From the NCBI GenBank assembly GCA_031409335.1, contig JANNWY010000058.1, forward strand, positions 1 through 15,212: 15,212 nt of DNA. The letters run 5' to 3'. This DNA comes from Chthoniobacteraceae bacterium. Its GTDB lineage: Bacteria; Verrucomicrobiota; Verrucomicrobiia; Chthoniobacterales; Chthoniobacteraceae. The notes under the pieces were generated by a model. It did not search any database. It saw only the letters and a program-made list of their open reading frames with translations, and was not told where the DNA came from. Made by a program: the position numbers and the translations under genes. Position 1 is the stretch's first letter, and the number at the start of each line of letters is the position of its first letter. Positions 1,162-14,253 of the stretch are shown piece by piece.

Positions 1162-4100
1162 TTGAAGACTTTACCCCAGATCAGGCGAACCGTCTTTCGG
1201 CGGACATGGGCGGCGTATCTGACGCTCGCCTTTGCGCTCCTGCCTGCCTTCGCCCCGGCGCAGCAGCCAGTCGGGAAATCCGAGGCGCAGATCCTCGCCG
1301 AGATTTACAACGCGGCGATGAAGGCGTTTCAGGCGGGCAATTGGAGCGAGGCGGCGAGTGGGCTGGAGAAGCTGATCAAGATGGTGCCGAATGAAGGCCA
1401 GGCGCAGATTCACCCGGCTTACCTGACGCTCGGCGCGGCTTACTACAACCTGCCGAATTTCCCGAAGGCGATCGAGGTCTTCACCGGATTCATCACGCGC
1501 TTTCCAAACGCGGAGCGGCTCATGGACGCGAAGCTCGGGCTCGGGCAGACGCATCTCGCGGCGAAGAATTACGACGAGGCGATCAAGGTGTTTGTGGCGC
1601 TGGAAAATGTGGCGGCGGTGCGCGAGCGGGCGCTCGGCTCGCAGGCGCTGGCTTACAGACTTCAAAAGAAAATCGACGACGCGATCCGCGTGCTGGAGAA
1701 GCTCGTGGGCGCGGACATCAAGACGACGCCGCAGGCAAATGGCGCGGTGATGCTGGTCGAGCTTTACGTGGAAAAAAATGAGACGGCCAAGGCGTCGGCG
1801 CTGCTGGAAATGCTCCAGGCGCGGATCGCGATCATCGACAATCTGGTGACGCTGAACACCGTGGCGATGAAGCTGGCGGATGGGTTTGCCGACAAAAAAA
1901 TGTATGGCGAGGCGATCAGTTGCTACCGGCTGATCCGTTCGCGCGATGAGATCATCCGCTTCCAGACCGACCGCATCGCGAAAATCGAAAAGCTGATCTC
2001 GTACAACGCGAACGTGGGTCCGGCGGACCCGGCACGCTACGTCGCCGCGCAGCAGCAGAATAATTTGCTGAAGAATGCGGTGGAGGATTCCAAACAACTG
2101 CTCGCGGGATTCAGCAAGCTGCCGGACTACGCGTCGGCGATGATGTTCCGCGTCGCGCGCTGCTGGAATGAGTGGGACAAAAGGTGGGAGGCGCTGGTCA
2201 TTTACAAGCGATTGCTCGCTGAATTTCCAACGGCGGAAGAGCGCGAGCCCGCGATGTTCGACATCGTGGCGACGCTCGGGGATTTGAATCGCATCAAAAG
2301 CACGCAGGCCGCGTGTGAGGCTTATCTAAAGGAATTTCCGAACGGCGAAAACGCGGGCACGGTGGGATACATGAGCGGAGCGGTGGCGCTGCAGGCGGGG
2401 GATTATCCCGGCGCGGAATCGTTCTTCACGACGATGCTGGAGCGGCAGCCGAAGAGCACCTATCGCGGCACGATGATGTATCTGCTCGGCAATGCGAAAT
2501 TCGCGCAGGGCCGGTATGACGACGCGAATGCCGATTACGAAAAGTATCTTCAGGCGTTTCCCGAAGGCACCACGGACGGCGCGGCCGGACTTTTCGGCAT
2601 CGGCGGAAGTCACGCGGAGGAATGCACGTTCCGACTCGCGGTGAGCCAGGTTTTCCTCGGCCACTATGAAAAGGCGCTCGAACGGCTGAACGCTTACGTC
2701 GCGAAATATCCGAAGGGATTTTTCCTGCCGGATGCGAAGTATCGCATCGCGATCTGCTACTACGCGGCGTCGCAGTACGAAGACGTGGTGACGCAGTGCG
2801 AGGCGTGGTCGCGCGAGTTTCCCGAAGATCAGATGGACGGCGAAGTGCAGGCGCTGCTCGGGGACGCGCACGCGGCGCTCGGACATCGGGAGCCGGCGGT
2901 GACCGCTTACGTGCGCTCTTACAAAAAAGCGGGCACGGACGAGGTGCTGAACTATTCGCTCTTCGAGGCGAGCAAGCACATGCAGAAACTCGGCCGGTGG
3001 GATGATGTGGGGAAGCTGTTCACGGAGTTCGTTGCGGAAAAGCCGGATCATCCGGCGGTGGTGGCGGCGATGTATTGGATCGCGAAGGCGCGGGCGAAGG
3101 AGGGTCGCGGCGATGAGGCGAAGCAGTTGCTCGTCGAGAATTTGAAGAAATACATCGCCGAGCCGAAGCGCGAGGCGGTGGAGCAATTGCTCTCGCAGAT
3201 GGCGCAACTTTGCTCAAAGCAGGTGCGGAGCGCGGCGGGAAGTAGCGCAGCCGCCCCGGCTGCCGATGGTCCGCCGGGCGCCCCGCCCGGCGAACGAACT
3301 GCGGGCGCGGCGCCCGCGGAACCGGCGGCAGGCGAGGCGCCTGCGGAACTGGCAGCAGGCGGGGTGCCTGCGGAACTGGCAGCAGGCGGGGCGCCTGCCC
3401 TACTTCCTCCGTACGATCCATTCGCGGAACTCGCAAAGCAGCTCAAACCGATCGACGACACGGCCACTCCTGCGATCAAGGCGCGGCTGATGTTTGCGCA
3501 GGCCGAGATGGCGACGATCAAGAAGCAGCCCGCGATGCGGGAGAAAATCCTGCGCGAGATGTCGGACCGCTTCAAACCCGAGGAGCTGAGCCCTCCCCTG
3601 CTCGCGCTGATCGGCGACTTTCTGCTCGAACACGGCGAGCCGGAGCGGGCGGCGAAGCTGTTTGATTTGATGCGCGAAAATTTTCCAAAGAGCGATCACC
3701 TGGATGTCGCGTACGTCGGCCTTGGCGAGATCGCGTTCGCGAAAAAAGAGTACGACAAGGCGCTGAAACTTTTCTCGGACGGGCTGGATACCGTGACCGC
3801 TTCGATGAAGATGAAGGAGGCGACGATCGGGAAGGCGAAGACGCTGATGGAACTCGGGAAGCTCGATGAATCGAAGAAGCTGTTCGAGCAAGTGGCATCC
3901 ATCCGCGAATGGCGCGGCGATGCCACGGCGCTGGCGGTGTTCTCGCTCGGCGAGATCGAGGCGCGGCAGAATCGGTTTCCCGAAGCGATTGCATTTTACC
4001 GCCGCGTGTTTGTCGCATATCAAAAATATCTGCCGTGGGTCGCGAAGTCGTATCTCAGGGCAGCCGACTCCTTTGAAAAAATGGGCAAACGACAAGACGC

Positions 4101-4206
4101 CATCGAAAACCTCCGGGACATGCTCCGCAACGAGAAGCTGCGTGAACTGCCGGAAACACAACAGGCCCGCAAACGCCTCGAAGAATGGGGAGTCGCACAA
4201 GGATGA
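1162..4206 (+). CDS. Large exported tetratricopeptide-repeat protein (BamD/CpoB-like TPR arrays), 1014 aa
   Basis: Long ORF with TTG start and a Sec-type signal peptide (RRTWAAYLTLAFALLPAFAPA-QQ). Many TPR units of the 'A..lG..y...g.y..A...f..fl..fP' type (AYLTLGAAYYNLPNFPKAIEVFTGFITRFP; MMYLLGNAKFAQGRYDDANADYEKYLQAFP). ATGA overlap with the next gene. Exact start uncertain. Confidence 0.85.
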   Translation: MKTLPQIRRTVFRRTWAAYLTLAFALLPAFAPAQQPVGKSEAQILAEIYNAAMKAFQAGNWSEAASGLEKLIKMVPNEGQAQIHPAYLTLGAAYYNLPNFPKAIEVFTGFITRFPNAERLMDAKLGLGQTHLAAKNYDEAIKVFVALENVAAVRERALGSQALAYRLQKKIDDAIRVLEKLVGADIKTTPQANGAVMLVELYVEKNETAKASALLEMLQARIAIIDNLVTLNTVAMKLADGFADKKMYGEAISCYRLIRSRDEIIRFQTDRIAKIEKLISYNANVGPADPARYVAAQQQNNLLKNAVEDSKQLLAGFSKLPDYASAMMFRVARCWNEWDKRWEALVIYKRLLAEFPTAEEREPAMFDIVATLGDLNRIKSTQAACEAYLKEFPNGENAGTVGYMSGAVALQAGDYPGAESFFTTMLERQPKSTYRGTMMYLLGNAKFAQGRYDDANADYEKYLQAFPEGTTDGAAGLFGIGGSHAEECTFRLAVSQVFLGHYEKALERLNAYVAKYPKGFFLPDAKYRIAICYYAASQYEDVVTQCEAWSREFPEDQMDGEVQALLGDAHAALGHREPAVTAYVRSYKKAGTDEVLNYSLFEASKHMQKLGRWDDVGKLFTEFVAEKPDHPAVVAAMYWIAKARAKEGRGDEAKQLLVENLKKYIAEPKREAVEQLLSQMAQLCSKQVRSAAGSSAAAPAADGPPGAPPGERTAGAAPAEPAAGEAPAELAAGGVPAELAAGGAPALLPPYDPFAELAKQLKPIDDTATPAIKARLMFAQAEMATIKKQPAMREKILREMSDRFKPEELSPPLLALIGDFLLEHGEPERAAKLFDLMRENFPKSDHLDVAYVGLGEIAFAKKEYDKALKLFSDGLDTVTASMKMKEATIGKAKTLMELGKLDESKKLFEQVASIREWRGDATALAVFSLGEIEARQNRFPEAIAFYRRVFVAYQKYLPWVAKSYLRAADSFEKMGKRQDAIENLRDMLRNEKLRELPETQQARKRLEEWGVAQG
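3310..3398 (+). repeat. In-frame 27-bp tandem repeat (~3.3 units) in an Ala/Pro/Gly linker
   Basis: gcgcccgcggaaccggcggcaggcgag / gcgcctgcggaactggcagcaggcggg / gtgcctgcggaactggcagcaggcggg / gcgcctgc, encoding APAEPAAGE-APAELAAGG-VPAELAAGG-APA. Confidence 0.9.
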
Positions 4207-5114
4207 AAACACTCTGCATCATTCCACTGCTCGTCGGAGCGACGCTCGCCGCCCGCGCGGATATCACCATTCAAAAAAAGGATGGCACCGCGCAGGTCGC
4301 CAAAGCACTGCGCAGGGAGAAGGACAACATCATCGCGACGATCGACATCCCACCGGCCAAACCCGGCGACGCCGTGCAGACCGGGGACATCGGGCTGCCG
4401 ATCGCGCAAATCGCGAAAATTGAATTTGGCGAACCTGCCGCGCTGAAGACTGCGCCGGAGCTGCTGATCAAGGGCAAGGGCGATGAAGCGATGGCGCAGA
4501 TCGATCTCGCGTTGAAATACTACGCCGGTTTTCGCGACGCGCCCGGGAGCTGGTGGGCGGATCTTTTACTGATGAAAATGAACGCGCTCGTGAGCCTCGG
4601 GCGCGAAAAGGAGGCGGATGCGCTCGCGGAAAGCATGAACGGACAAAGCACCGATCCCGAGTCGAAACGCGCCGCGAAAGTGCTGCTCGCATCCTCGACG
4701 CTGCGCAAAGGCGACGCGAAGTCCGCGGCCGTATCGCTCGACGCCGTGCTGAAAGACGGGGCGAAACCGGACGTGCTCGCTGCCGCCGCAATTTACAAGG
4801 GGCAAACGCTGCTCGTGCTGAAAGACTGGGAAAACGCGCTGCTCAGTTTCCTGCAAGTGCCCGTGCTTTACCCCGAGCAAAAGGCGCTCGCGCCAGCCTC
4901 GATGCTCGGCGTGGGACGCGCCCATTTCGGGCTGGAGGATTTCGAGGCGGCGAAAAGAACGCTAAGGGAATTGATGAAGACTTTCAAAGGCACGCCTGAA
5001 GCCATCGCCGGGAAGGCAGAAATGGAGGCCATCGCGAAACGCGAAAAAGCTCTCTCCGATCCGACGGCCCGTAAAGACCTGACGGCCCCGCCCAACGCGC
5101 CCGCCCCGAATTAA
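4203..5114 (+). CDS. Exported TPR protein (CpoB/YbgF-like C-terminal TPRs), 303 aa
   Basis: ATG 4203 overlaps the upstream TGA (ATGA) and gives a clean signal peptide MKTLCIIPLLVGATLAARA-D, so I prefer it to the track start at 4185. TPR-like C-terminus (AAIYKGQTLLVLKDWENALLSFLQVPVLYP; SMLGVGRAHFGLEDFEAAKRTLRELMKTF). Confidence 0.8.
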   Translation: MKTLCIIPLLVGATLAARADITIQKKDGTAQVAKALRREKDNIIATIDIPPAKPGDAVQTGDIGLPIAQIAKIEFGEPAALKTAPELLIKGKGDEAMAQIDLALKYYAGFRDAPGSWWADLLLMKMNALVSLGREKEADALAESMNGQSTDPESKRAAKVLLASSTLRKGDAKSAAVSLDAVLKDGAKPDVLAAAAIYKGQTLLVLKDWENALLSFLQVPVLYPEQKALAPASMLGVGRAHFGLEDFEAAKRTLRELMKTFKGTPEAIAGKAEMEAIAKREKALSDPTARKDLTAPPNAPAPN

Positions 5115-5141: not shown

Positions 5142-5966
5142 ATGAAGCTGAAACAAATTTACCTTTTCTCCATCCTCCTCGCCGGCCTGCTCGTTTTTGT
5201 CGGCGGGCTGCAAGCGCAGGAGGCCACACCGGCAAAACCGTCGGTCTCGGAAACGGCGCCCATTCGCAACAAAACGCTGATGCACCAGATCAAGGAAGGC
5301 GGCTGGGTGATGATCCCGATCGCGGCGTGCTCGATTCTGATGGTTTACCTCATCATCGACGGCGTCCTGCGGACCAGTCCGAAAAAGGCGCTCCCGGCCG
5401 AGCACGTCGAGTCGGTGAAGAGCCTGTTCCGCCAGGGCGATTACGTCGGCGCTTACAACTGCTGCAAATCGAATCCGTCACCTTTCACCAATGTCTGCCG
5501 CGTCGCGGTAAGCCAGTTGGGCGAAGGAAAGACCGCCGTCGAGGAGGGAATTTATTCGGAAATCTCGAAGGAGAATTCCCGGATGCAGACTTACATCAGC
5601 TACCTTTCCGTCATCGGCGTCTGCGCACCGATGATCGGGCTGCTCGGCACGGTGACGGGAATGATGTCGGCGTTTTCCACCCTCGGCACATCTGGCATCG
5701 GCGATCCATCGAGCCTCTCGGCAGCGATCGGCGAAGTGCTCACCGCGACGGCTTCCGGCCTGTTCATCGCGATCCCGGCGTTCGGCTTTTACTACTACCT
5801 GCGCAGCCGTGCGGCGAAGATATTGCACGACATCCAGGACACGATGGCGAGCCTGCTGCGCAAGATGCCTTACGATCAAATCGCCGGCGCACACATCGGC
5901 GACGAGGAGCTTTACGCTGCCACGCCAAACTGGATTTCCGCGAGCCAGGCAGCCGCGCAGGCTTAA
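5142..5966 (+). CDS. exbB: MotA/TolQ/ExbB proton channel family protein
   Basis: GGWVMIPI first TM, APMIGLLGTVTGM (TM2) and IGEVLTATASGLFIAIPA (TM3) signatures. Cleavable-looking N-terminal signal (GLQA-QE). Followed by two exbD genes. Confidence 0.92.
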   Translation: MKLKQIYLFSILLAGLLVFVGGLQAQEATPAKPSVSETAPIRNKTLMHQIKEGGWVMIPIAACSILMVYLIIDGVLRTSPKKALPAEHVESVKSLFRQGDYVGAYNCCKSNPSPFTNVCRVAVSQLGEGKTAVEEGIYSEISKENSRMQTYISYLSVIGVCAPMIGLLGTVTGMMSAFSTLGTSGIGDPSSLSAAIGEVLTATASGLFIAIPAFGFYYYLRSRAAKILHDIQDTMASLLRKMPYDQIAGAHIGDEELYAATPNWISASQAAAQA

Positions 5967-6008: not shown

Positions 6009-6464
6009 ATGGCCGGCGGTGGTGGCGGCGAAGGTGAGCCGGAATTCCAGATCGCGCCGATGATCGACGTGCTGCTGGTGCTGCTCATTTTTTTCATGAG
6101 CATCACCACCGCGCAGGTCTTGAAGGTGGACAAAAACGTGAAACTTCCGCTCGCGCCGAATGCGATCAAGAAAGACACGCAGCGCAGCGAAGTGATCATC
6201 AACGTGCGATGGGATGAAGCGGCGAAGAAGGCCAACTACATCGTCGATGAGAAGGTGTTTTTGGAAACGGGCGAACTGACCAAGGCCGTGACCGCCGCCA
6301 AGTTCGCAGGCGAGACGCGCGTGACGAAATCAGCGAACCCGACTTTCCGCGCGGTGATTCGTGGCGATCGCGACGCCACCGCGATGTATATCTCGCGGGC
6401 CATGAACGCGGCGGCCGAAGCGGGCATCAGCGACATCTCATTTTCCGCGGTGAACAAGGAATGA
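6009..6464 (+). CDS. exbD: ExbD/TolR family protein (copy 1)
   Basis: FQIAPMIDVLLVLLIFFM transmembrane motif with the conserved Asp; C-terminal VIRGDRDA...AGISDISF; SD ggagga just upstream. Confidence 0.92.
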   Translation: MAGGGGGEGEPEFQIAPMIDVLLVLLIFFMSITTAQVLKVDKNVKLPLAPNAIKKDTQRSEVIINVRWDEAAKKANYIVDEKVFLETGELTKAVTAAKFAGETRVTKSANPTFRAVIRGDRDATAMYISRAMNAAAEAGISDISFSAVNKE

Positions 6465-6922
6465 AAAAACCGTCCCGCCGCTTCGATTCATCCGGCGACG
6501 CTGTGCATCTGGGATTCCAGATCGCGCCGATGATCGACGTGGTTTTTGTCATCATGCTGTTCTTCATGGTCATGGCCGGCTCGGTGAAAGTGGAGAAGGA
6601 GCTGAACTCCCAGCTTCCCGGAAATGCCGAGACTTCCGGCGCAACGGATTTCGTGGATGAGCAGATCATCAACATCGCCGAAAATGGCGAGGTGCAGCTC
6701 AACGAAGAACCGATGGACACGGCAGCGAGTCGCGACTTGCCGCAACTCACCGCGACGCTCACCCGGCTGAAAAAAACGGGCGACGAAGCGAAAACGCCAA
6801 CGCTCGTGACCGTCGTGAGCGAGCCGAATGCGAAATACAGCCGCACCGTCGATGTCCTCGATTCGCTCGCCGTTGCGGGCGTTACGAACGTCACCTTCAC
6901 CGTGAGCGATGAAGAACCATGA
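6461..6922 (+). CDS. exbD: ExbD/TolR family protein (copy 2)
   Basis: FQIAPMIDVVFVIMLFFMV with the conserved Asp; C-terminal YSRTVDVLDSLAVAGVTNVTF; ATGA overlap with copy 1. Confidence 0.92.
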   Translation: MKKPSRRFDSSGDAVHLGFQIAPMIDVVFVIMLFFMVMAGSVKVEKELNSQLPGNAETSGATDFVDEQIINIAENGEVQLNEEPMDTAASRDLPQLTATLTRLKKTGDEAKTPTLVTVVSEPNAKYSRTVDVLDSLAVAGVTNVTFTVSDEEP

Positions 6923-6952: not shown

Positions 6953-7975
6953 ATGGACGTGATCTCGCCATCCATCCCGATCAAGCCGAGCTTTTGGCAG
7001 AAAGCCACGTCGAGCAAGGTGCTGGTGATCAGCGTCGTCATTCACCTGATCTTTGGCGCGATCGCGACCTACTTCATCGTGCAGCGCATCCAGACGAAAC
7101 GAAAGATGACCTTCCAAGGCGGCCCGCCCGCCGTGAACGCGAGCAAGCGCGCGCTCGAACACAAAATGTCGCTCGGCAAAAAGAAGGCCGTGATGAGCGC
7201 GCCCGCGCAGGCGAAACGCATCATGTCTTCCGGCCTCGCGAAAGTGGCGCTCCCGGATTTGCCATCGCTCCCCTCCTCGACCGATGCCGTGCCAAATCGC
7301 ATGGGTGGAATCGGCGGCGTGGGGAATAGCTTCGGCGGTGGTGGTGGCGGCGGCGGACTCGGTGGCGGCGGCGGTTCGGGCATCAACTTCTTTGGCCTGC
7401 GCTCGATGGTCCAAAGTGTGGTGTTTATCGTCGATGTCTCAAATAGCATGATCTCCGGTGACAAGAATGCGCGGACATACGTCACGCTGGAGAAGGAAGT
7501 TGAAAAAGTGGTGAGCGGGCTCGATCCGCTGGCAAAGTTCGGCCTGATCTGCTTTTCCGCTGACGCCATTCCCTATCGGACCAGCCTTACCAATGCGGTC
7601 GGCTTTGAAAAACGACGCGCGATCGAATGGATGAAAAAGCAAAGCCCCGTGGAAACACTCGACACAAAGCTAAAGGACAAGGCGCTCGAAGACGCTCGGC
7701 ACCGGCACATGGGCACTCATGCGGACGAAGCCCTCAAGCGGGCGTTTGCGATGAAGCCGGACACGATCTTTTTCATCTCGGACGGGGAACCCACCGGCAC
7801 CAGTGGCAGCGACGTCATTAAGGAAGTGAAAGATCTTCAGAAAACGCTGCCGCGTCCCGCGAAAATCCATGTGATCGCATACGTGCCGGATGACGGGCAG
7901 GACTTCATGCGGGAGCTCGCGCGCTCGAACGGCGGGGAATATCGCGTGGTGAATCTCAACGAAGCGGGAAAGTAG
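6953..7975 (+). CDS. Membrane-anchored vWA domain protein with a TonB/TolA-like N-terminal anchor and Gly-rich linker
   Basis: Single TM helix VLVISVVIHLIFGAIATYFIV with SxxxH (7031-7045); Pro/Lys/Ser then Gly-rich linker; vWA MIDAS elements VVFIVDVSNSM (DxSxS at 7433-7447), GT..EAL..AF and IFFISDGEPT; C-terminal FMRELARSNGGEY. Confidence 0.85.
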   Translation: MDVISPSIPIKPSFWQKATSSKVLVISVVIHLIFGAIATYFIVQRIQTKRKMTFQGGPPAVNASKRALEHKMSLGKKKAVMSAPAQAKRIMSSGLAKVALPDLPSLPSSTDAVPNRMGGIGGVGNSFGGGGGGGGLGGGGGSGINFFGLRSMVQSVVFIVDVSNSMISGDKNARTYVTLEKEVEKVVSGLDPLAKFGLICFSADAIPYRTSLTNAVGFEKRRAIEWMKKQSPVETLDTKLKDKALEDARHRHMGTHADEALKRAFAMKPDTIFFISDGEPTGTSGSDVIKEVKDLQKTLPRPAKIHVIAYVPDDGQDFMRELARSNGGEYRVVNLNEAGK

Positions 7976-8049: not shown

Positions 8050-8502
8050 ATGCAATTCGTTACAGAACTCCCATCGACTCATGCGGGCCCGGACACCTTG
8101 CGCATCGACATTCCTCACGGTCTGATCGGTCTCTCACACCTGCGCAGCTTCGACGTCACACCGGCCAAAGATGCCTGGCCATTCGTGACTCTCCACGCCA
8201 TCGGCGACGATGAACTCAACTTTCTGGCGATGGAGCCACAAAGCATTATCCCCAACTACAATCTGGAACTCACAGATTACGACGCCGAAATCATCGGCCT
8301 CACTGATCCAAAAGACGCGTTGATCTATAACATCGTCACCGTCCATCCGACGGCGAAGAACTACGTCACGGCGAACCTCGTGGCTCCGCTCGTGGTCAAC
8401 AAACTCACCCTGGTCGGCAAACAAGTCATCCTCGCCAACGGCGAATCCTTCTCCGCAAAACATCCCTTGATCGACGAACGCGAAATCGCGGCGGTCGCCT
8501 GA
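8050..8502 (+). CDS. fliW: Flagellar assembly factor FliW (CsrA antagonist)
   Basis: [34 protein letters not shown] and [11 protein letters not shown]...GKQVIL match FliW motifs; directly upstream of csrA. Confidence 0.93.
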
Positions 8503-8519
8503 AATGGGGGCGCGCTCTC

Positions 8520-8771
8520 ATGCTGATCCTCAGCCGAAAGGCCAGCGAAAGCATCATGATCGGAGACGACATCGAGATTCGAGTCTCGCGGATCGATTCC
8601 GACGTGGTAAAAATTGGCATTGAGGCCCCGCGTCACCTGCCCATTTTTCGCAATGAGATCTACCGGCAGATTAAAGCCTTCAACCTCGCCGCAGTGCGCC
8701 GTGCCGATGCGCAGATCCCAGCACTAAACCTTCCCAAAACGATTCCGACTATCAACGCCTCGCATCCATGA
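8520..8771 (+). CDS. csrA: Carbon storage regulator CsrA, FliW-partnered type with C-terminal extension
   Basis: [22 protein letters not shown]...[22 protein letters not shown]-binding R44 present, and N55 present (the residue needed for FliW antagonism in Bacillus subtilis CsrA). Confidence 0.96.
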
Positions 8772-9616
8772 CAATCAATACCAATCCGGCCGCCACCGCC
8801 GCCGCCCGCAATCTGAGTCACAGCCAAGACATGCTGAACAAGTCACTGAACAGACTCAGTTCCGGCTCGAAGATCGTCCTGCCTTCCGACGATGCCGCCG
8901 GGCTCGCCGTATCGGAAAAGCTCCAGGCACAAAATCGTCGCCTTGGCGCCGCCTCGACCAATGTGCAAAATGCAATGTCATACATCCAAACCGCCGATGG
9001 TTTCATGAGCAGCATGAGCAAGGTGCTCACGCGCATGAGTGAACTTTCGATGATGGCAAAGGACGTCACGAAGAACGCGGGGGATGTCGCTTTGTACCAG
9101 CAGGAATTTCAGGCTCTCCAGCAGCAGTTGAGTGACACCGTCGGCGGTGGCGCGCTTGCAACTCCTTTGGGAACTTTCAACGGTATAACCCTTTTCGCGC
9201 CGAACCCGACGGGCCTTGCTGTGACCATCGGTGAAGGACCAGGGCAGACCATGACCATCGCGGAAACAAACCTCCAGGATGGCGCGCTGAACGCAATTCT
9301 CGGCCAGGCAGCCCCGCCTGCTTTTGATGTATCAGTCACGACCGCAAACATCGCCACCTTGGTAATCGACGCGATCCAGGATATCGCGACGGAACGCGCG
9401 ACACTTGGAGCCGCTCAATCACGCCTCGACGTGGCGTCCACGACACTCAGTGTCGAAAGTCAGAATCTCGAAGCTGCGATCTCGCGGATCCGGGATGTCG
9501 ATGTGGCCACTGAAAGCACCCAGTACGCGAAGAACAACATCCTCGTGCAATCTGGCACTGCCATGCTCGCTCAGGCAAACCAGCTTCCCCAGTCCGTCCT
9601 GAAGCTCCTTCAGTAG
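8768..9616 (+). CDS. fliC: Flagellin 1, short (282 aa)
   Basis: N-terminal MTINTN...[11 protein letters not shown]...DDAAGLAVS and C-terminal [11 protein letters not shown]...[15 protein letters not shown]...[21 protein letters not shown] overlap with csrA. Confidence 0.97.
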
Positions 9617-9747
9617 CAGCACGGCACTTTCGGCGCGGCTCTCGCGCTGAAACGCAGGCTTTCGGAACCGGAACATCCCAGGCGGTAGGGATGCTTCGCA
9701 CAAAATCGCTAAAACTCAGCACTCCCCAGCGCTGCCGCTAGCTCGCA

Positions 9748-11139
9748 CTAGCTCAACAAACCCTTCCCGATCCGGTATTCGTTCAACTTATTGCGAAGAG
9801 TACGAATGCTGATGTCCAGCATCTCCGCCGTTCTGGTCCGGTTGCCGCCATTCTGCTCGAGTGAACGGATGATGTGATCGCGCTCAACCTCGGACAATGG
9901 CCTCACTTGTCCCGCACCCATCGGACCGCCACCACTACACCGCGGGGTGACCTCGCGGGAAAAGGACATTGCGCCACTCCCACCAAGGCCAAGCGAATCC
10001 GCCGCAACCAAAGTCTGATCATCGGTAAGAATCGCCGCCCGTTCGATCGTGTTTTGCAGCTCACGGACGTTCCCGGGCCATGTGTGAGAACACAGCACGT
10101 CCATGGCTTGGTCTGTAAATCCCGGAATCCGCAAGCCATGCCGCCGTGAACACCGTCCCAAAAAGTGCGCCGCAAGCATCGAGATGTCGTCCAGACGATC
10201 GCGCAACCGTGGAACATGGACAGGAAAGACATTCAGGCGATAAAATAGATCTTCGCGAAATTCACCGGCGGCAACCGCCTTGGAAAGATCGCGATTCGTC
10301 GTCGCGAGCACTCGCACGTCCACCTTGATTGTCTTTGTTCCGCCGACACGTTCGAACTCGCGCTCCTGAAGGACGCGCAACAATTTCGCCTGAAGCCGTG
10401 GTGAAATCTCGCTAATCTCATCCAGCAACAGCGTGCCGCCATTTGCCAGTTCGAAGCGGCCCTCACGTCGCTCGCTGGCTCCGGTAAAAGATCCCTTCTC
10501 GTGCCCGAAAAACTCACTTTCGATCAAGGTGTCCGAAACTGCCGCGCAGTTCACTTTGATATAAGGTGCCTGCGAGCGCCCACTGCCGTGAAAGATCTCG
10601 TGCGCCACAAGTTCCTTACCAGTCCCGTTCTCGCCTTGAATCAGCACCGTGGCTTCTGTCGGTGCCACCTTGCGAAGCATCGACCTGAGAGAAACGATCG
10701 CCGCGCTATTACCGATCAGGTCACTGGCATCGCTGACTTGCGCTGCCAGGTATTCATTCACTTGAACCACCTGACGGTAAGACTCCGCCTTCTTGACGAT
10801 CACCTCGATTTGACCCAGCGAGAATGGCTTGATGAGATAGTCGAAAGCTCCGCTCTTCATGCAATCGACCGCCGTTTCAATCGTTCCGAATCCACTCATC
10901 ACCACCGTGAGTGGGCGGTGTGGCAGATTCGCGAGTCGGTCTAGCAGATCCGTCCCGCAACCGTCCGGGAGTCGCACATCAAGGAATAGCAAATCGAATG
11001 CATCCCGTCTCAACAGCTTTTCCGCATCTTGAAGGGTGCCCACCGTCGCAATGCCATACCGCTTTGGACGCAGCAATTCCTCGAAGCTCTTTCGAATCAT
11101 CGGCTCGTCATCGAGAACGAGTATCTTTTCAATTGCCAT
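9748..11139 (-). CDS. Sigma54-dependent response regulator (REC-AAA+-Fis HTH), FleR/FlgR/NtrC family
   Basis: REC (LVLDDE, LLFLDVRLPDG, MSGFG, YLIKPF), Walker A GENGTGKE, ESEFFGHEKGSFTGA, Walker B LLLDEI, FREDLFYRLNV, WPGNVRELQN, HTH NGGNRTRTAEMLDISIRTLRNKL. Confidence 0.95.
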   Translation of the reverse strand: MAIEKILVLDDEPMIRKSFEELLRPKRYGIATVGTLQDAEKLLRRDAFDLLFLDVRLPDGCGTDLLDRLANLPHRPLTVVMSGFGTIETAVDCMKSGAFDYLIKPFSLGQIEVIVKKAESYRQVVQVNEYLAAQVSDASDLIGNSAAIVSLRSMLRKVAPTEATVLIQGENGTGKELVAHEIFHGSGRSQAPYIKVNCAAVSDTLIESEFFGHEKGSFTGASERREGRFELANGGTLLLDEISEISPRLQAKLLRVLQEREFERVGGTKTIKVDVRVLATTNRDLSKAVAAGEFREDLFYRLNVFPVHVPRLRDRLDDISMLAAHFLGRCSRRHGLRIPGFTDQAMDVLCSHTWPGNVRELQNTIERAAILTDDQTLVAADSLGLGGSGAMSFSREVTPRCSGGGPMGAGQVRPLSEVERDHIIRSLEQNGGNRTRTAEMLDISIRTLRNKLNEYRIGKGLLS

Positions 11140-11174
11140 TGGGATCTATCGCGCTGGTGCCCTCGTTGACGCGG

Positions 11175-11558
11175 TCAGCGCGCGGTCGCGTGGCCGTAAA
11201 GCCGTTGCAGTTGCGCGGCAGCCGGGCGCATTGCTGGGAGCTGCACTCTTCGCTGCATCGTGCATTTGAGCAAAAGCTGTTCGTTTTCCCGATCAAGCAG
11301 CAGGGCTTTCATGATTGTCTTCTGCGCTTTCTTCACGCATTGCCGGACTTCTGTGGAAGTGGGCAATGATTCTGTTAGTCCCGCGCGCAATCTCTCCAAA
11401 GAGAACGAGAGTGTTCCCAGCAAGACACTCTTCCGACTCAGCAGGGTGTCCGCGGGAGGTTGTCCGGAACGCCGCAGATGGCGATTCTCTTCAATCATGA
11501 GATCGTAGATCTCGTCGCAGAGTGCAGTGTGGCTGGTCAGGGTCTCGGGCAGGCTCAT
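11175..11558 (-). CDS. Small helical protein, probable FlgN-like flagellar export chaperone
   Basis: 127 aa, helical/coiled-coil pattern with early 'LMIEENRHLR', 'LLSRKSVLL' and late 'LLLDRENEQLLL' resembling the FlgN layout; flagellar context; 6 nt downstream of the TPR gene. Confidence 0.6.
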   Translation of the reverse strand: MSLPETLTSHTALCDEIYDLMIEENRHLRRSGQPPADTLLSRKSVLLGTLSFSLERLRAGLTESLPTSTEVRQCVKKAQKTIMKALLLDRENEQLLLKCTMQRRVQLPAMRPAAAQLQRLYGHATAR

Positions 11559-11564
11559 GGGAAT

Positions 11565-12875
11565 TTATTGATTGACTGATGCGGACTTCGCGCTTTGGGG
11601 ACGCGACTCCGGTAAGGATTGGGGTTCACCGAGCAGACGCTGCAACTGGGTCTCGGCCGTGTAACTCCACGCCAGTTGCTCGCCACGCCACTGGGCCATC
11701 TGGAGTAAATTGGCAAGGGTCTCCGATAGTTCGACTCCATCGGTTTCACCCTTCTTTGACTGATCAATAATGTACTTGTATGCCTCGCCTGCCCGACTAG
11801 TCAGGCGCAGCCGTTCAAACGTAAGTCCCATCTGGTAGATCACGGGCCATTGCCACTCTGGATCTTCACTGAGTTTTGCGAGTGTCTGATAGATCGAAAG
11901 CGCGCTCAGGAAGTCACCCTGCTGATAGAATTGATTGGCAAACTCGTTGCCTGTCTTTTTTTGCCAGTATGCCCATCGTTCCGGTGCCTTTTCCCTCAAC
12001 GCTTTCTCTCCCCGCAGCAATGCGAGGACCACATCGAACGCTTCCTTCTTCCGGCCAATGGAGCGAAGCGCCGAGGCTTGGATGAATCTCACTTCCGGAA
12101 CTGCGGGATCTTCGGGATAGTCGGTTAAGAACCTGTCTGCCGCGGTCACTGCACCCGCGGAATCATCCAGCAGGAACTGGCAGTGCAACAATTTGAAGCG
12201 CACTCGCGGACGCTGACTGTCCTCCAGTTCAGTGCGCGCAAGAAGCTGGTAAAATTTTGCCGCCTGCTTGTAGTCGCCAGTCAGCAGGTAGGTTTCGGCG
12301 ATCTCCATTTGAGCGCGTTGCGAGAGATCGCGATAGGAATCAACCCCGCGCTCGTTAATTTTCAGAGCGGTATTGAGCACGCTGTAAAAGCGCGACACTG
12401 CCCGGCCATATGCTCCGGTTTCACGGTAAAGCTGGCCGGCCTTGAAAAGAAACTGAGGCAGATCCGGATCGGTCGGGAATAGTTCGATCATCTTCTCCAG
12501 GATCGTTACCGCCTTGGTCAGTTGACGGTGCTTTTCGTACTCCTCCGACAATTCCCGCAACGCGGCCTTCTTTTCCGAGTTGCCGCATGGCAATTCGACG
12601 AGCAGCCGGAGGAAATGGTCCGCGAGCGGCCACTTTTTTTGATCGGCTGCCTCCCGGGCCAGTTGCGTGTAGCCGGCAATTTCAGTCTCTATGCTGACAT
12701 CATGCGGGCTCGCGGGTCGGGCAGGAATGCGGATCTCCTCGGGTTCAGCGTGCCCGGTTTCGCTTTCCACGCTGCGCGCGCTATGTGGCAAGGAACTCAG
12801 CGTCAATGCCACTAAGGCGGTGAAACGTAGTGAATTACTTTTGGACGGAAGTAGCTTTGCTTTTTGGCAGGTCAT
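11565..12875 (-). CDS. Exported TPR protein in a flagellar operon, 436 aa
   Basis: Hydrophobic N-terminal segment LRFTALVALTLSSLPHSARS; TPR units (FLFKAGQLYRETGAYGRAVSRFYSVL; AQMEIAETYLLTGDYKQAAKFYQLL; VIYQMGLTFERLRLTSRAGEAYKYII). Start overlaps the upstream gene by 41 nt, so it is uncertain. Confidence 0.8.
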   Translation of the reverse strand: MTCQKAKLLPSKSNSLRFTALVALTLSSLPHSARSVESETGHAEPEEIRIPARPASPHDVSIETEIAGYTQLAREAADQKKWPLADHFLRLLVELPCGNSEKKAALRELSEEYEKHRQLTKAVTILEKMIELFPTDPDLPQFLFKAGQLYRETGAYGRAVSRFYSVLNTALKINERGVDSYRDLSQRAQMEIAETYLLTGDYKQAAKFYQLLARTELEDSQRPRVRFKLLHCQFLLDDSAGAVTAADRFLTDYPEDPAVPEVRFIQASALRSIGRKKEAFDVVLALLRGEKALREKAPERWAYWQKKTGNEFANQFYQQGDFLSALSIYQTLAKLSEDPEWQWPVIYQMGLTFERLRLTSRAGEAYKYIIDQSKKGETDGVELSETLANLLQMAQWRGEQLAWSYTAETQLQRLLGEPQSLPESRPQSAKSASVNQ

Positions 12876-13332
12876 TGGGCATTACCGGCTGAAAGATGGG
12901 ATCGAAGAGGTAAGCGCGACGAACGGGCCTTCCTTCCGTGTTTTTGAAGAACTCCAGTACTTCATCTGGCACTTTGGAGAAGTCCGGCTGCAACGGCTTT
13001 GGATTGGAATCCACCGTGTTGCCACCAGGAGCAGCCGAAGCGGCAACATGCTCGGCGGGCTGCTTCGCTTCCAGAACTGGCGCTTCCGGCGCGACTTCTT
13101 TGCTCGCGATCACCGGCGCGGCAGGCGGGCGGCGCTGTTCGCACTGCGGCGCGGACGCCGAAAACCGCATCGGCAGTGGTCCTCTGCTCGCGAGGTAGCC
13201 CTCTGGCTTAAAAATATGCGGATACGAAACCGTTTCCTTAAACTGCTGCCGTGGAGCAATCGTGTCGCCTGCGCGCACGAACCCGCCCGCGCACAAGGCA
13301 AGCAAGGCAAGGCAAGTTGGAAGATTTTGCAT
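12835..13332 (-). CDS. Hypothetical secreted Pro/Ala-rich protein, 165 aa
   Basis: ATG 13332 gives signal peptide MQNLPTCLALLALCAGGFVRA-G. The track start at 13389 lies in the terminator tail and upstream of the sigma54 motif. Ordered-looking motifs YLASRGPLPMRF and VPDEVLEFFK...LFDPIFQP...LPKSKAT flank a low-complexity core. Confidence 0.65.
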   Translation of the reverse strand: MQNLPTCLALLALCAGGFVRAGDTIAPRQQFKETVSYPHIFKPEGYLASRGPLPMRFSASAPQCEQRRPPAAPVIASKEVAPEAPVLEAKQPAEHVAASAAPGGNTVDSNPKPLQPDFSKVPDEVLEFFKNTEGRPVRRAYLFDPIFQPVMPNDLPKSKATSVQK

Positions 13333-13344
13333 CACGTCATACTC

Positions 13345-13360
13345 AGCAACTTCCTTACCA
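13345..13360 (-). promoter_or_regulatory. Putative sigma54 (-24/-12) promoter for the minus-strand four-gene operon
   Basis: Minus strand reads TGGTAA-GGAAG-TTGCT: exact GG-N10-GC with a perfect TTGCT -12 box. It lies between the flagellin-2 terminator and ATG 13332. Confidence 0.7.
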
Positions 13361-13382
13361 TCCGAACGAGCGGATCGCTCCC

Positions 13383-13425
13383 AACACAAAGAAAGCTCCC
13401 CCGGATAACGAATCCGAGGGAGCTT
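13383..13425 (-). terminator. Rho-independent terminator of flagellin 2
   Basis: Minus strand aagctccctcggat-tcgtt-atccgggggagctt (14-bp stem, one G-U) followed by tctttgtgtt; starts 28 nt after the flagellin stop. Confidence 0.85.
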
Positions 13426-13452
13426 CCCCTGCCATTTTGGCAGAATTGCCTT

Positions 13453-14253
13453 TTAACGCAGCAGTGTCAGGACCGACTGGGACGAGGCATTCGCCTGTGC
13501 CAGCATCGCCGAACTCGCCTGCACGAGGATGTTGTTCCGTGCGAGTCTGGTGGATTCACTCGCCACGTCCACGTCCACGATCCGGCTGTTGGCCGCTTCG
13601 AGGTTCGTCCGGTTTGCGGTCAACAGATCCCCCGCGAAGCCAAGGCGGCTGCCTTCCGCGCCGTTTTGCGCGCGTGATGTGGCCACCGAGGTGATCGCGT
13701 CGGTAATCCCAGTCGTCGTCGCAGCGCCGATGCTCCCGAAACCGACCACGGCAGCAACTGCCGTCGTGAGTGCCGATTGCGTGACGGTCAATGTTTGAGC
13801 ACCGTCTTCCGATGTTTCAACAGTCAGACCCGCCGCGTTGTCGAACAGCGCCACCCCGTTGAATTTTTCGGAGGTGATGCTGGTCAACTGCGTTTTTAAC
13901 GCGGCGAATTCCACGTCATAGTTGGCGATGTCGGTCGCACTCTTCGTTACGTCCGTGGACAACGTTTTCAGCTCGGCGATACGCTCGAGGACTTTGCCCG
14001 CTGTCTTCAAGCCGCCATCCTGCGTTTGCAGGAAGGACTGGGCATTGGCGACATTCGTGCTGGCAGCGTCGGTTCGGCGAAGGGCCGCCTCCATACGCAT
14101 CGAGACCGCGAGGCCGCCCGCATCATCGGAAGGCGCCGTGATCTTCGACCCGCTCGAGAGACGAGCGAGGCTCTTTTGAAGCATCGAATTGTTGTTGTTG
14201 AGATTCACCGAAGCAGCGGTCGCTGCAGTGTTAGTGTTAATTACGAGACTCAT
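13453..14253 (-). CDS. fliC: Flagellin 2, very short (266 aa)
   Basis: MSLVINTN...[14 protein letters not shown]...DDAGGLAVS and C-terminal RAQNGAEGSRL...NLEAANSRIVDVDVA...MLAQANASSQSVLTLLR; SD aaagga upstream; own terminator. Confidence 0.97.
   Translation of the reverse strand: MSLVINTNTAATAASVNLNNNNSMLQKSLARLSSGSKITAPSDDAGGLAVSMRMEAALRRTDAASTNVANAQSFLQTQDGGLKTAGKVLERIAELKTLSTDVTKSATDIANYDVEFAALKTQLTSITSEKFNGVALFDNAAGLTVETSEDGAQTLTVTQSALTTAVAAVVGFGSIGAATTTGITDAITSVATSRAQNGAEGSRLGFAGDLLTANRTNLEAANSRIVDVDVASESTRLARNNILVQASSAMLAQANASSQSVLTLLR

Follow-up and report, generated by a model that had tools for sequence, protein, structure and literature searches.

The window analyzed here, a stretch of 15,212 nucleotides from a contig of a Chthoniobacteraceae bacterium (JANNWY010000058.1; phylum Verrucomicrobiota), contains a module of six genes on the same strand, in the order large TPR protein, small TPR protein, exbB, exbD1, exbD2, and a gene for a vWA-domain protein, hereinafter the arm, which comes last. 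The intergenic gaps along the module are -22, 27, 42, -4, and 30 bases, and in relatives at 84-87% identity, which are Chthoniobacterales-type Verrucomicrobiota, the gene order is identical. The features are as follows:

1162-4206, + strand: large TPR protein of 1014 aa with a signal-peptide-like N-terminus, opening the module (Pfam TPR and NCBIfam YbgF-type matches)
4185-5114, + strand: small TPR protein of 309 aa, likewise with a signal-peptide-like N-terminus; weak likeness to Mul1B (NF052542 at E 0.0066, which is under the cut-off)
5142-5966, + strand: ExbB/TolQ-type motor subunit (PF01618, E 1.6e-26); Ser64 of TM1 at 5331-5333
6009-6464, + strand: ExbD/TolR-type subunit 1, with the invariant Asp20 (PF02472, E 6.1e-16)
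6461-6922, + strand: ExbD/TolR-type subunit 2, with the invariant Asp26; 4-base overlap with subunit 1 (PF02472, E 2.2e-18)
6953-7975, + strand: helix-linker-vWA protein (340 aa), predicted force transducer (Pfam, AlphaFold2 model, Foldseek, conservation)
7019-7081, + strand: single transmembrane helix of this protein, residues 23-43, with Ser27, His31 and the near-invariant Ala38 on one face (hydropathy, conservation)
7031-7033 and 7043-7045, + strand: Ser27 and His31 of the transmembrane helix
7082-7378, + strand: linker, residues 44-142, conserved over residues 50-107 and followed by a Gly-rich hinge (conservation, composition, low pLDDT)
7379-7972, + strand: vWA domain with a complete MIDAS (Pfam VWA, conservation, model, Foldseek)
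7433-7447, 7715-7717, and 7781-7783, + strand: MIDAS residues D161/S163/S165, T255, and D277 of the vWA domain

A promoter scan returned 0 sites, and terminator-like sites were at the chance level (12 vs 10.9). Upstream of the module lie a 5'-open fn3-like ORF (positions 1-591) and a 570-base gap, the translations of which suggest short repeated elements. The large TPR protein carries an Ala/Pro/Gly-rich insert with short tandem repeats (approximately 3230-3420), and the start of ExbB (5142-5220) resembles, by eye, a cleavable signal peptide, as it does in many relatives. Positions 8050-14253, right after the module, are occupied by a flagellar cluster comprising fliW, csrA, two genes for short flagellins (of 282 aa and 266 aa), one for a sigma-54 regulator, a FlgN-like gene, and a TPR gene. 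This cluster is not conserved beside the module in 90 loci; MotA/MotB-like genes of the same genome are located on contig C179. To our knowledge, flagella seem unusual for the order Chthoniobacterales.

The 340-aa arm contains one hydrophobic segment (the highest 19-residue Kyte-Doolittle mean is 2.42, at residue 25, and past residue 60 the mean is at most 1.43), which is preceded by 22 residues and falls within a helix confidently predicted at residues 14-51 by the AlphaFold2 model built with 32 homologues. The initial annotation, made from the DNA sequence, had described this segment as a TonB-like SxxxH anchor, and one helix with Ser27 and His31 is indeed what we find; of the SHLS motif, S and H alone are retained, the places at i+11 and i+15 being taken by Ala38 and Ile42. 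Its second proposal, that a vWA domain replaces the C-terminal domain of TonB, is equally well founded: the Pfam VWA match exceeds the cut-off (E 1.6e-6), residues 151-330 are modelled with pLDDT above 90, Foldseek matches of the modelled tip are vWA-domain proteins, such as ITIH1, CLCA1, BatB, and CMG2, the MIDAS residues D161-S163-S165/T255/D277 are all in place, and Pfam and NCBIfam searches detected neither a TonB_C nor a TolA C-terminal domain in the protein. The intervening linker, annotated as a stretch of about 100 aa, is 99 aa long (Gly 22, Ala 10, Ser 10, Lys 9, and Pro 7) and appears disordered, with pLDDT below 50 at residues 52-60 and 65-140; it is not a plain spacer, however: its first half is nearly invariant, a feature that the initial annotation did not mention. 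The near-invariant positions are R50, K51, F54, E69, H70, K77, A83-R89, and L100-P104, and the conserved segments 50-54, 69-73, 87-91, and 97-101 are candidate motor boxes, with no strand at usable confidence within residues 50-107 of the monomer model. Assignment of the arm to the trans-pore-helix vWA family (PMC12204202, Fig. 4c,d) was considered and rejected: no ExbD-type Asp is present in helix residues 23-43, and two exbD genes lie upstream.

To count conservation in the near family, we took the 120 best of the 278 homologues, at 38-89% identity; it exceeds what chance would give. In this set, His31 is found in all 117 rows that cover the position, and Ala38 in 114 of 118, whereas Ser27 is present in 80 of 117 covering rows, being replaced by Ala in 23, Val in 13, and Thr in 1. 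All five MIDAS residues (D161, S163, S165, T255, and D277) are present in 120 of the 120 homologues. The His is also present in 71 of 71 aligned anchors that were selected through patterns in the linker, of which the His is not a part. Counted against our main reading, the His is replaced by Gln in 2 of 23 distant anchors, both from family f9 (L103 and L110), and a Gln takes its place also in a 94-aa anchor fragment at locus L012. Likewise counted against it, of 14 distant vWA tips 9 retain DxSxS and 5 do not; the metal grip envisaged at the outset is invariant in the near family only. One further arm, L106:7848-10217, carries a tandem pair of vWA-like domains, neither with DxSxS. An SxxxH inside a helix is rare: among 854 single-helix-like ORFs of the same genome, spurious frames included, it occurs in 7, and 5 of these display the helix-linker-domain layout, namely, the window protein, TonB (contig C214), a TonB-like protein (C226), and two barrel-tipped arms (C102).

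Relatives of the arm with additional domains point to an N-inside orientation, which would place the vWA domain in the periplasm: in such fusions, SAM and Ser/Thr kinase domains precede the helix, whereas PA14 domains follow it. SAM or Ser/Thr kinase fusions at the N-terminus were found in 16 of the 27 non-vWA relatives scanned, and a SAM fusion in 5 of the best 120 of 278 vWA homologues. The kinase precedes the helix at loci L037 and L051 (Pfam) and at L044 and L067 (by eye), and SAM precedes it at L008, L012, L045, L046, L048, L052, L053, L056, and L057. The charges flanking the helix are symmetric, with Lys+Arg counts of 3.7 before and 3.5 after it in the vWA members, so that the positive-inside rule leaves the topology undecided; this we count against our main reading.

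In the motor genes preceding the arm, the proton-binding aspartates are conserved: Asp20 of ExbD1 and Asp26 of ExbD2 are each present in 23 of 23 rows. Ser64 of the window ExbB aligns with the His-docking serine column, where a TonB-linked ExbB of the same genome (contig C148) has SxxxW; in E. coli, Ser16 and His20 of TonB sit on Ser34 and Trp38 of ExbB, according to the structural account in PMC12215075. Among ExbBs linked to an anchor, the serine occurs in all 28 whose sequence includes TM1 (this region is missing from one more row) and in 11 of 11 distant representatives. The window ExbB has Val68 where the E. coli contact has Trp, which we count against our main reading. Three TonB_C genes (C214, C148, and C325), each near an exbB of its own, and seven transporter matches are found in the same genome, so that the window module is an additional system. 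Given the transporter matches, a partner for the arm encoded elsewhere in the genome is possible. A second module with motor genes of the same subfamily, consisting of a small exported protein, exbB, exbD, and exbD, is located at C39 47435-50104; its ExbB keeps the Ser, and no arm gene adjoins it. At C102 3370-6403 (- strand), two tandem SxxxH-anchored proteins are tipped with alpha-barrels, and their linker is a different one. As no motor gene was seen close to these barrel-tipped arms, they may use the motor of C39 or of the window.

Across the phylum, the anchor profile matches 70 of 301 genomes and the ExbD2 subfamily 97 of 301; both are present in 69 of the 70 anchor-positive genomes, a count in which kin are not independent of each other. 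The ExbD2 subfamily spans 59 of 149 genera, and the module marked by it was not found in 204 of the 301 genomes searched. Modules of the window type are also encoded in distant families of the phylum. The large TPR protein recurs in 51 of 90 loci. Beyond the six module genes and their antisense frames, no neighbour is present in more than 8 of these loci; in particular, neither a TonB-dependent transporter nor tolB or pal recurs beside the module, and no recurrent outer-membrane partner was found in the 90 loci. For any model of transport, this absence is the main gap.

Using two patterns from the linker as seeds, a scan yielded 68 loci with 78 anchor-bearing ORFs, the tips of which are vWA domains (31), PA14-like domains (25), or alpha-barrels (16), with 6 cut short. 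The three tip types occupy the same position in the operon: the gene directly after exbD2 encodes a vWA-tipped arm in 7 loci, a PA14-tipped arm in 11, and a barrel-tipped arm in 4, and in loci L006, L008, L012, and L056 tandem arms carry different tips. In L056, the anchors of the vWA and PA14 arms differ by one residue. A tree of 71 of the 78 anchors (7 were dropped as too short or badly bounded, including the 94-aa Gln fragment) requires 14 tip changes against a possible minimum of 3, on 99 columns only and with many open forks. In 20 loci from distant families, the tips are vWA (14), PA14 (5), and barrel (1), and the motor and large TPR genes adjoin the arm in 11 of them. Collectively, these sequence comparisons show the anchor-linker unit to be a standard handle, the tips of which (vWA, PA14, or alpha-barrel) have been repeatedly exchanged in the same operon slot. 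In the PA14 tips, one Asp is invariant and the next residue is Asp or Asn. This pair aligns with the corresponding motif of Epa6, a lectin of solved structure that the PA14 profile matches weakly (E 0.018); the Asp-Asp/Asn motif binds calcium. The barrel tip has a predicted (alpha/alpha)6 barrel fold, for which Foldseek places terpene cyclases, AprG, and GH76 indistinguishably close (TM-scores 0.53-0.65).

The small TPR gene is present in the locus of all 28 vWA anchors with at least 1.5 kb of upstream sequence, many of which form one clade, near 14 of 21 PA14 arms, and near 7 of 16 barrel arms; its product is a candidate ligand of the vWA tip. The tip itself, with its intact MIDAS, is predicted to bind a ligand in a metal-dependent manner. 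Against our main reading counts the finding that exbD is included in the retrieved locus for only 12 of these 28 vWA anchors. A suggestion that the domain senses force as the integrin I domain does is not supported: integrin I-domain allostery works via the C-terminal helix, and in the AlphaFold2 model the vWA domain is suspended by its N-terminal strand, with the C-terminal helix free.

Taken together, the position of the arm after exbB-exbD-exbD, the invariance of His31 (117/117), and the conservation of ExbB Ser64 and of both ExbD aspartates agree with the TonB-architecture transducer originally proposed, and we consider it very probable that the arm is a motor-coupled TonB-like transducer. 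The complete explanation, which we hold to be somewhat more probable than its opposite, is that the arm is the inner-membrane transducer of an ExbB-ExbD1-ExbD2 motor, with a metal-dependent vWA grip on a periplasmic partner. By analogy with the Ton and Tol structures of E. coli, His31 would dock onto Ser64 of ExbB, and a strand of the conserved linker would be caught between the two different ExbDs, much as the D-box described in PMC10907165. Proton-driven turning of the ExbD pair could then reel the linker in, and the MIDAS metal would bind an acidic residue of its target, for which the small TPR protein of the module, or a cargo carried by both TPR proteins, is the likeliest candidate. As for the job, the most likely one is capture and inward movement of large polymers, although we would not give it an even chance; it is suggested by the kinship with the motor beside Mul1B (see below) and by the lectin-type PA14 tips. 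Should polymer handling hold, the module would explain how large-glycan uptake is energized without the classical TonB route in Verrucomicrobia.

The same motor coupling could also serve other ends. Tol-like tethering or remodelling of the envelope, with the arm pulling a periplasmic TPR scaffold so as to keep the outer membrane in place or alter its shape, would fit the matches of both TPR families to the CpoB/YbgF model, the best scores of ExbB and the ExbDs against TolQ and TolR models (all below cut-off), the lack of a recurrent transporter in the 90 loci, and the occurrence of the ExbD2-marked module in 59 of 149 genera. Yet tolB and pal do not recur beside the module in those loci, the module was not found in 204 of the 301 genomes searched, and repeated tip swaps and tandem arms with mixed tips suit a variety of ligands better than a single housekeeping target; we consider this job unlikely. 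We are more sceptical still of gliding or surface adhesion resembling that driven by Agl-Glt of Myxococcus, with vWA and PA14 domains as adhesin heads. Both are adhesion folds, and one ExbB with two different ExbDs as well as the SAM/kinase tails resemble AglRQS and GltG/GltJ; a role of this kind is also suggested in PMC12204202. However, with some 100 residues of linker between it and the inner-membrane helix, the tip would be expected to stay in the periplasm, no outer-membrane platform recurs in the 90 loci, and the genome encodes flagellins and MotA/MotB-like proteins.

Two further readings were considered. If the main role of the arm were to sense a ligand or mechanical load, an event of binding at its tip would tilt the helix and either gate the motor or signal to the cytoplasmic SAM/kinase tail; the N-terminal fusions (16 of 27 non-vWA relatives and, for SAM, 5 of the 120 vWA homologues) are in line with this, and signalling through a Ser-His network has been proposed in PMC12215075. 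Only 22 residues precede the helix in the window protein, however, and both ExbD aspartates are invariant, as a working motor predicts; we regard the sensor as quite improbable. Hardly any probability attaches to the view that the arm, a vWA adaptor anchored in the membrane, makes no contact with the motor, its SxxxH being a chance likeness. The lack of exbD in the retrieved locus of 16 of the 28 vWA anchors and that of the E. coli contact Trp in ExbB would agree with such an adaptor, but the His is invariant, SxxxH is rare in single helices (7/854), the ExbB Ser is present with arms and absent without them, and the anchor co-occurs with the ExbD2 subfamily in 69 of 70 genomes.

The proposed architecture is not new. 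vWA force transducers with this gene order have been predicted in PVC bacteria, with AF3 models (Williams-Jones et al. 2025, PMC12204202), and transducers of the Tichowtungia aerotolerans type are reported there from Verrucomicrobia as well; the window protein is a further member of this published, predicted class. As in the published description, it combines an SHLS-type His helix, a disordered linker of about 100 residues, and a C-terminal vWA fold, and its gene comes after TPR and tolQ-like genes and a pair of tolR-like genes that differ from each other. The description in PMC12204202 names one TPR gene, whereas the window has two. The main text of that paper does not mention MIDAS, metal, or Akkermansia, and one of its supplement files does not mention PA14, squalene, prenyltransferase, MIDAS, or Akkermansia.

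With TonB-ExbBD and TolA-TolQR of E. coli, as described in PMC12215075 and PMC10907165, the window module shares the single Ser-x3-His helix, the TM1 serine of ExbB, the ExbD aspartate, and a periplasm-spanning linker. Unlike these systems, its arm has no TonB_C or TolA domain, the Leu and second Ser of SHLS are replaced by Ala and Ile, the linker is conserved in sequence and Gly-rich rather than Pro-rich, ExbB lacks the Trp, there are two different ExbDs, and no TonB-dependent transporter, TolB, or Pal adjoins the module. The Leu and Ser of SHLS are reported to be less conserved in TonB itself (PMC12215075). Classification of the arm as TonB or TolA proper was rejected, both the TonB_C/TolA domain and the full Ser-x3-His-x6-Leu-x3-Ser motif being absent. 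The window module is also comparable to Agl-Glt, the gliding machine of Myxococcus, which resembles it in combining a single TolQ-like subunit with two that are TolR-like, in having TonB-like arms that bear signalling tails in the cytoplasm, and in its vWA adhesins. In Agl-Glt, however, the vWA domains belong to lipoproteins of the cell surface, whereas a TonB_C-like domain terminates the arms, and no Glt outer-membrane platform recurs in the 90 loci.

The remaining comparison concerns MUL1, the mucin-uptake locus of Akkermansia (PMC12570417, bioRxiv 2024.03.27.586211), in which mul1A mutants fail in mucin use (PMC12570417) and which has been likened to Sus, with no synteny in aquatic relatives according to PMC13174399. 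Every one of the 23 genomes of family f11 has a match above the cut-off of the Mul1B model (NCBIfam NF052542, 75 bits), and we infer on this ground that f11 is Akkermansiaceae; the model finds no match over cut-off in the genome of the window, where the small TPR protein scores 15.7 bits. Nine loci retrieved around Mul1B matches have the order exbB-exbD-exbD-large TPR-Mul1B and thus carry the five other gene types of the window, in a different order. The large TPR protein beside Mul1B we take, from the gene order, to be Mul1A. The window large TPR protein is a distant relative of this TPR family (hhalign 99.9% over 807 columns), and two of the Mul1B-adjacent large TPR proteins, used as queries, have it as their only match among 48,228 ORFs. 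In contrast, a profile of all nine prefers another TPR protein of the genome and does not list that of the window; the preferred protein (C293 31558-34734) is exported and 1059 aa long, with no motor gene seen adjoining. For the small TPR protein, the match to Mul1B (93.7%) is no better than a generic TPR match, that to the large TPR protein reaching 93.2%. The Mul1B-adjacent ExbBs form a long branch within a clade (SH-aLRT 97) that also holds the window type and two more ExbBs of the same genome.

The arm itself is not part of this kinship. No anchor gene is found beside the nine Mul1B-adjacent motors, and all 22 of the 22 genomes from the Mul1B-locus genus lack a match to the anchor, so that a vWA arm in MUL1 itself was rejected. 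The docking Ser is absent from the Mul1B-adjacent ExbBs (0/9), a loss that counts as one event in one clade. Orthology of the two motors was likewise rejected: they occupy separate branches of the ExbB clade, and both types coexist in one genome (G081), which makes them paralogues. Because the MUL1 paralogue is armless, the mucin phenotype bears at best on the core of motor and TPR proteins, not on the vWA arm. Searches of openly accessible literature found no report of either the kinship of the MUL1 motor or the exchange of tips on a common anchor and linker.

A broader scenario, which we offer tentatively and regard as rather doubtful, is that Verrucomicrobia possess a third motor of the Ton/Tol type, with a standard handle, exchangeable grips (MIDAS vWA, PA14 lectin, or alpha-barrel), and two TPR scaffolds, that hauls large polymers across the periplasm and of which MUL1 would be a derived, arm-less offshoot. 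This scenario includes repeated switching of tips by recombination and occasional wiring to cytoplasmic SAM/kinase domains and, if true, would supply the energy source for polymer uptake in the phylum. For the published class of vWA transducers, the comparison adds the small TPR protein as a candidate ligand and, with the motor beside Mul1B, a relative whose phenotype, mucin uptake, is known, and it renders the class testable through the pair of His31 and ExbB Ser64, both ExbD aspartates, the MIDAS, and natural tip-swap variants.
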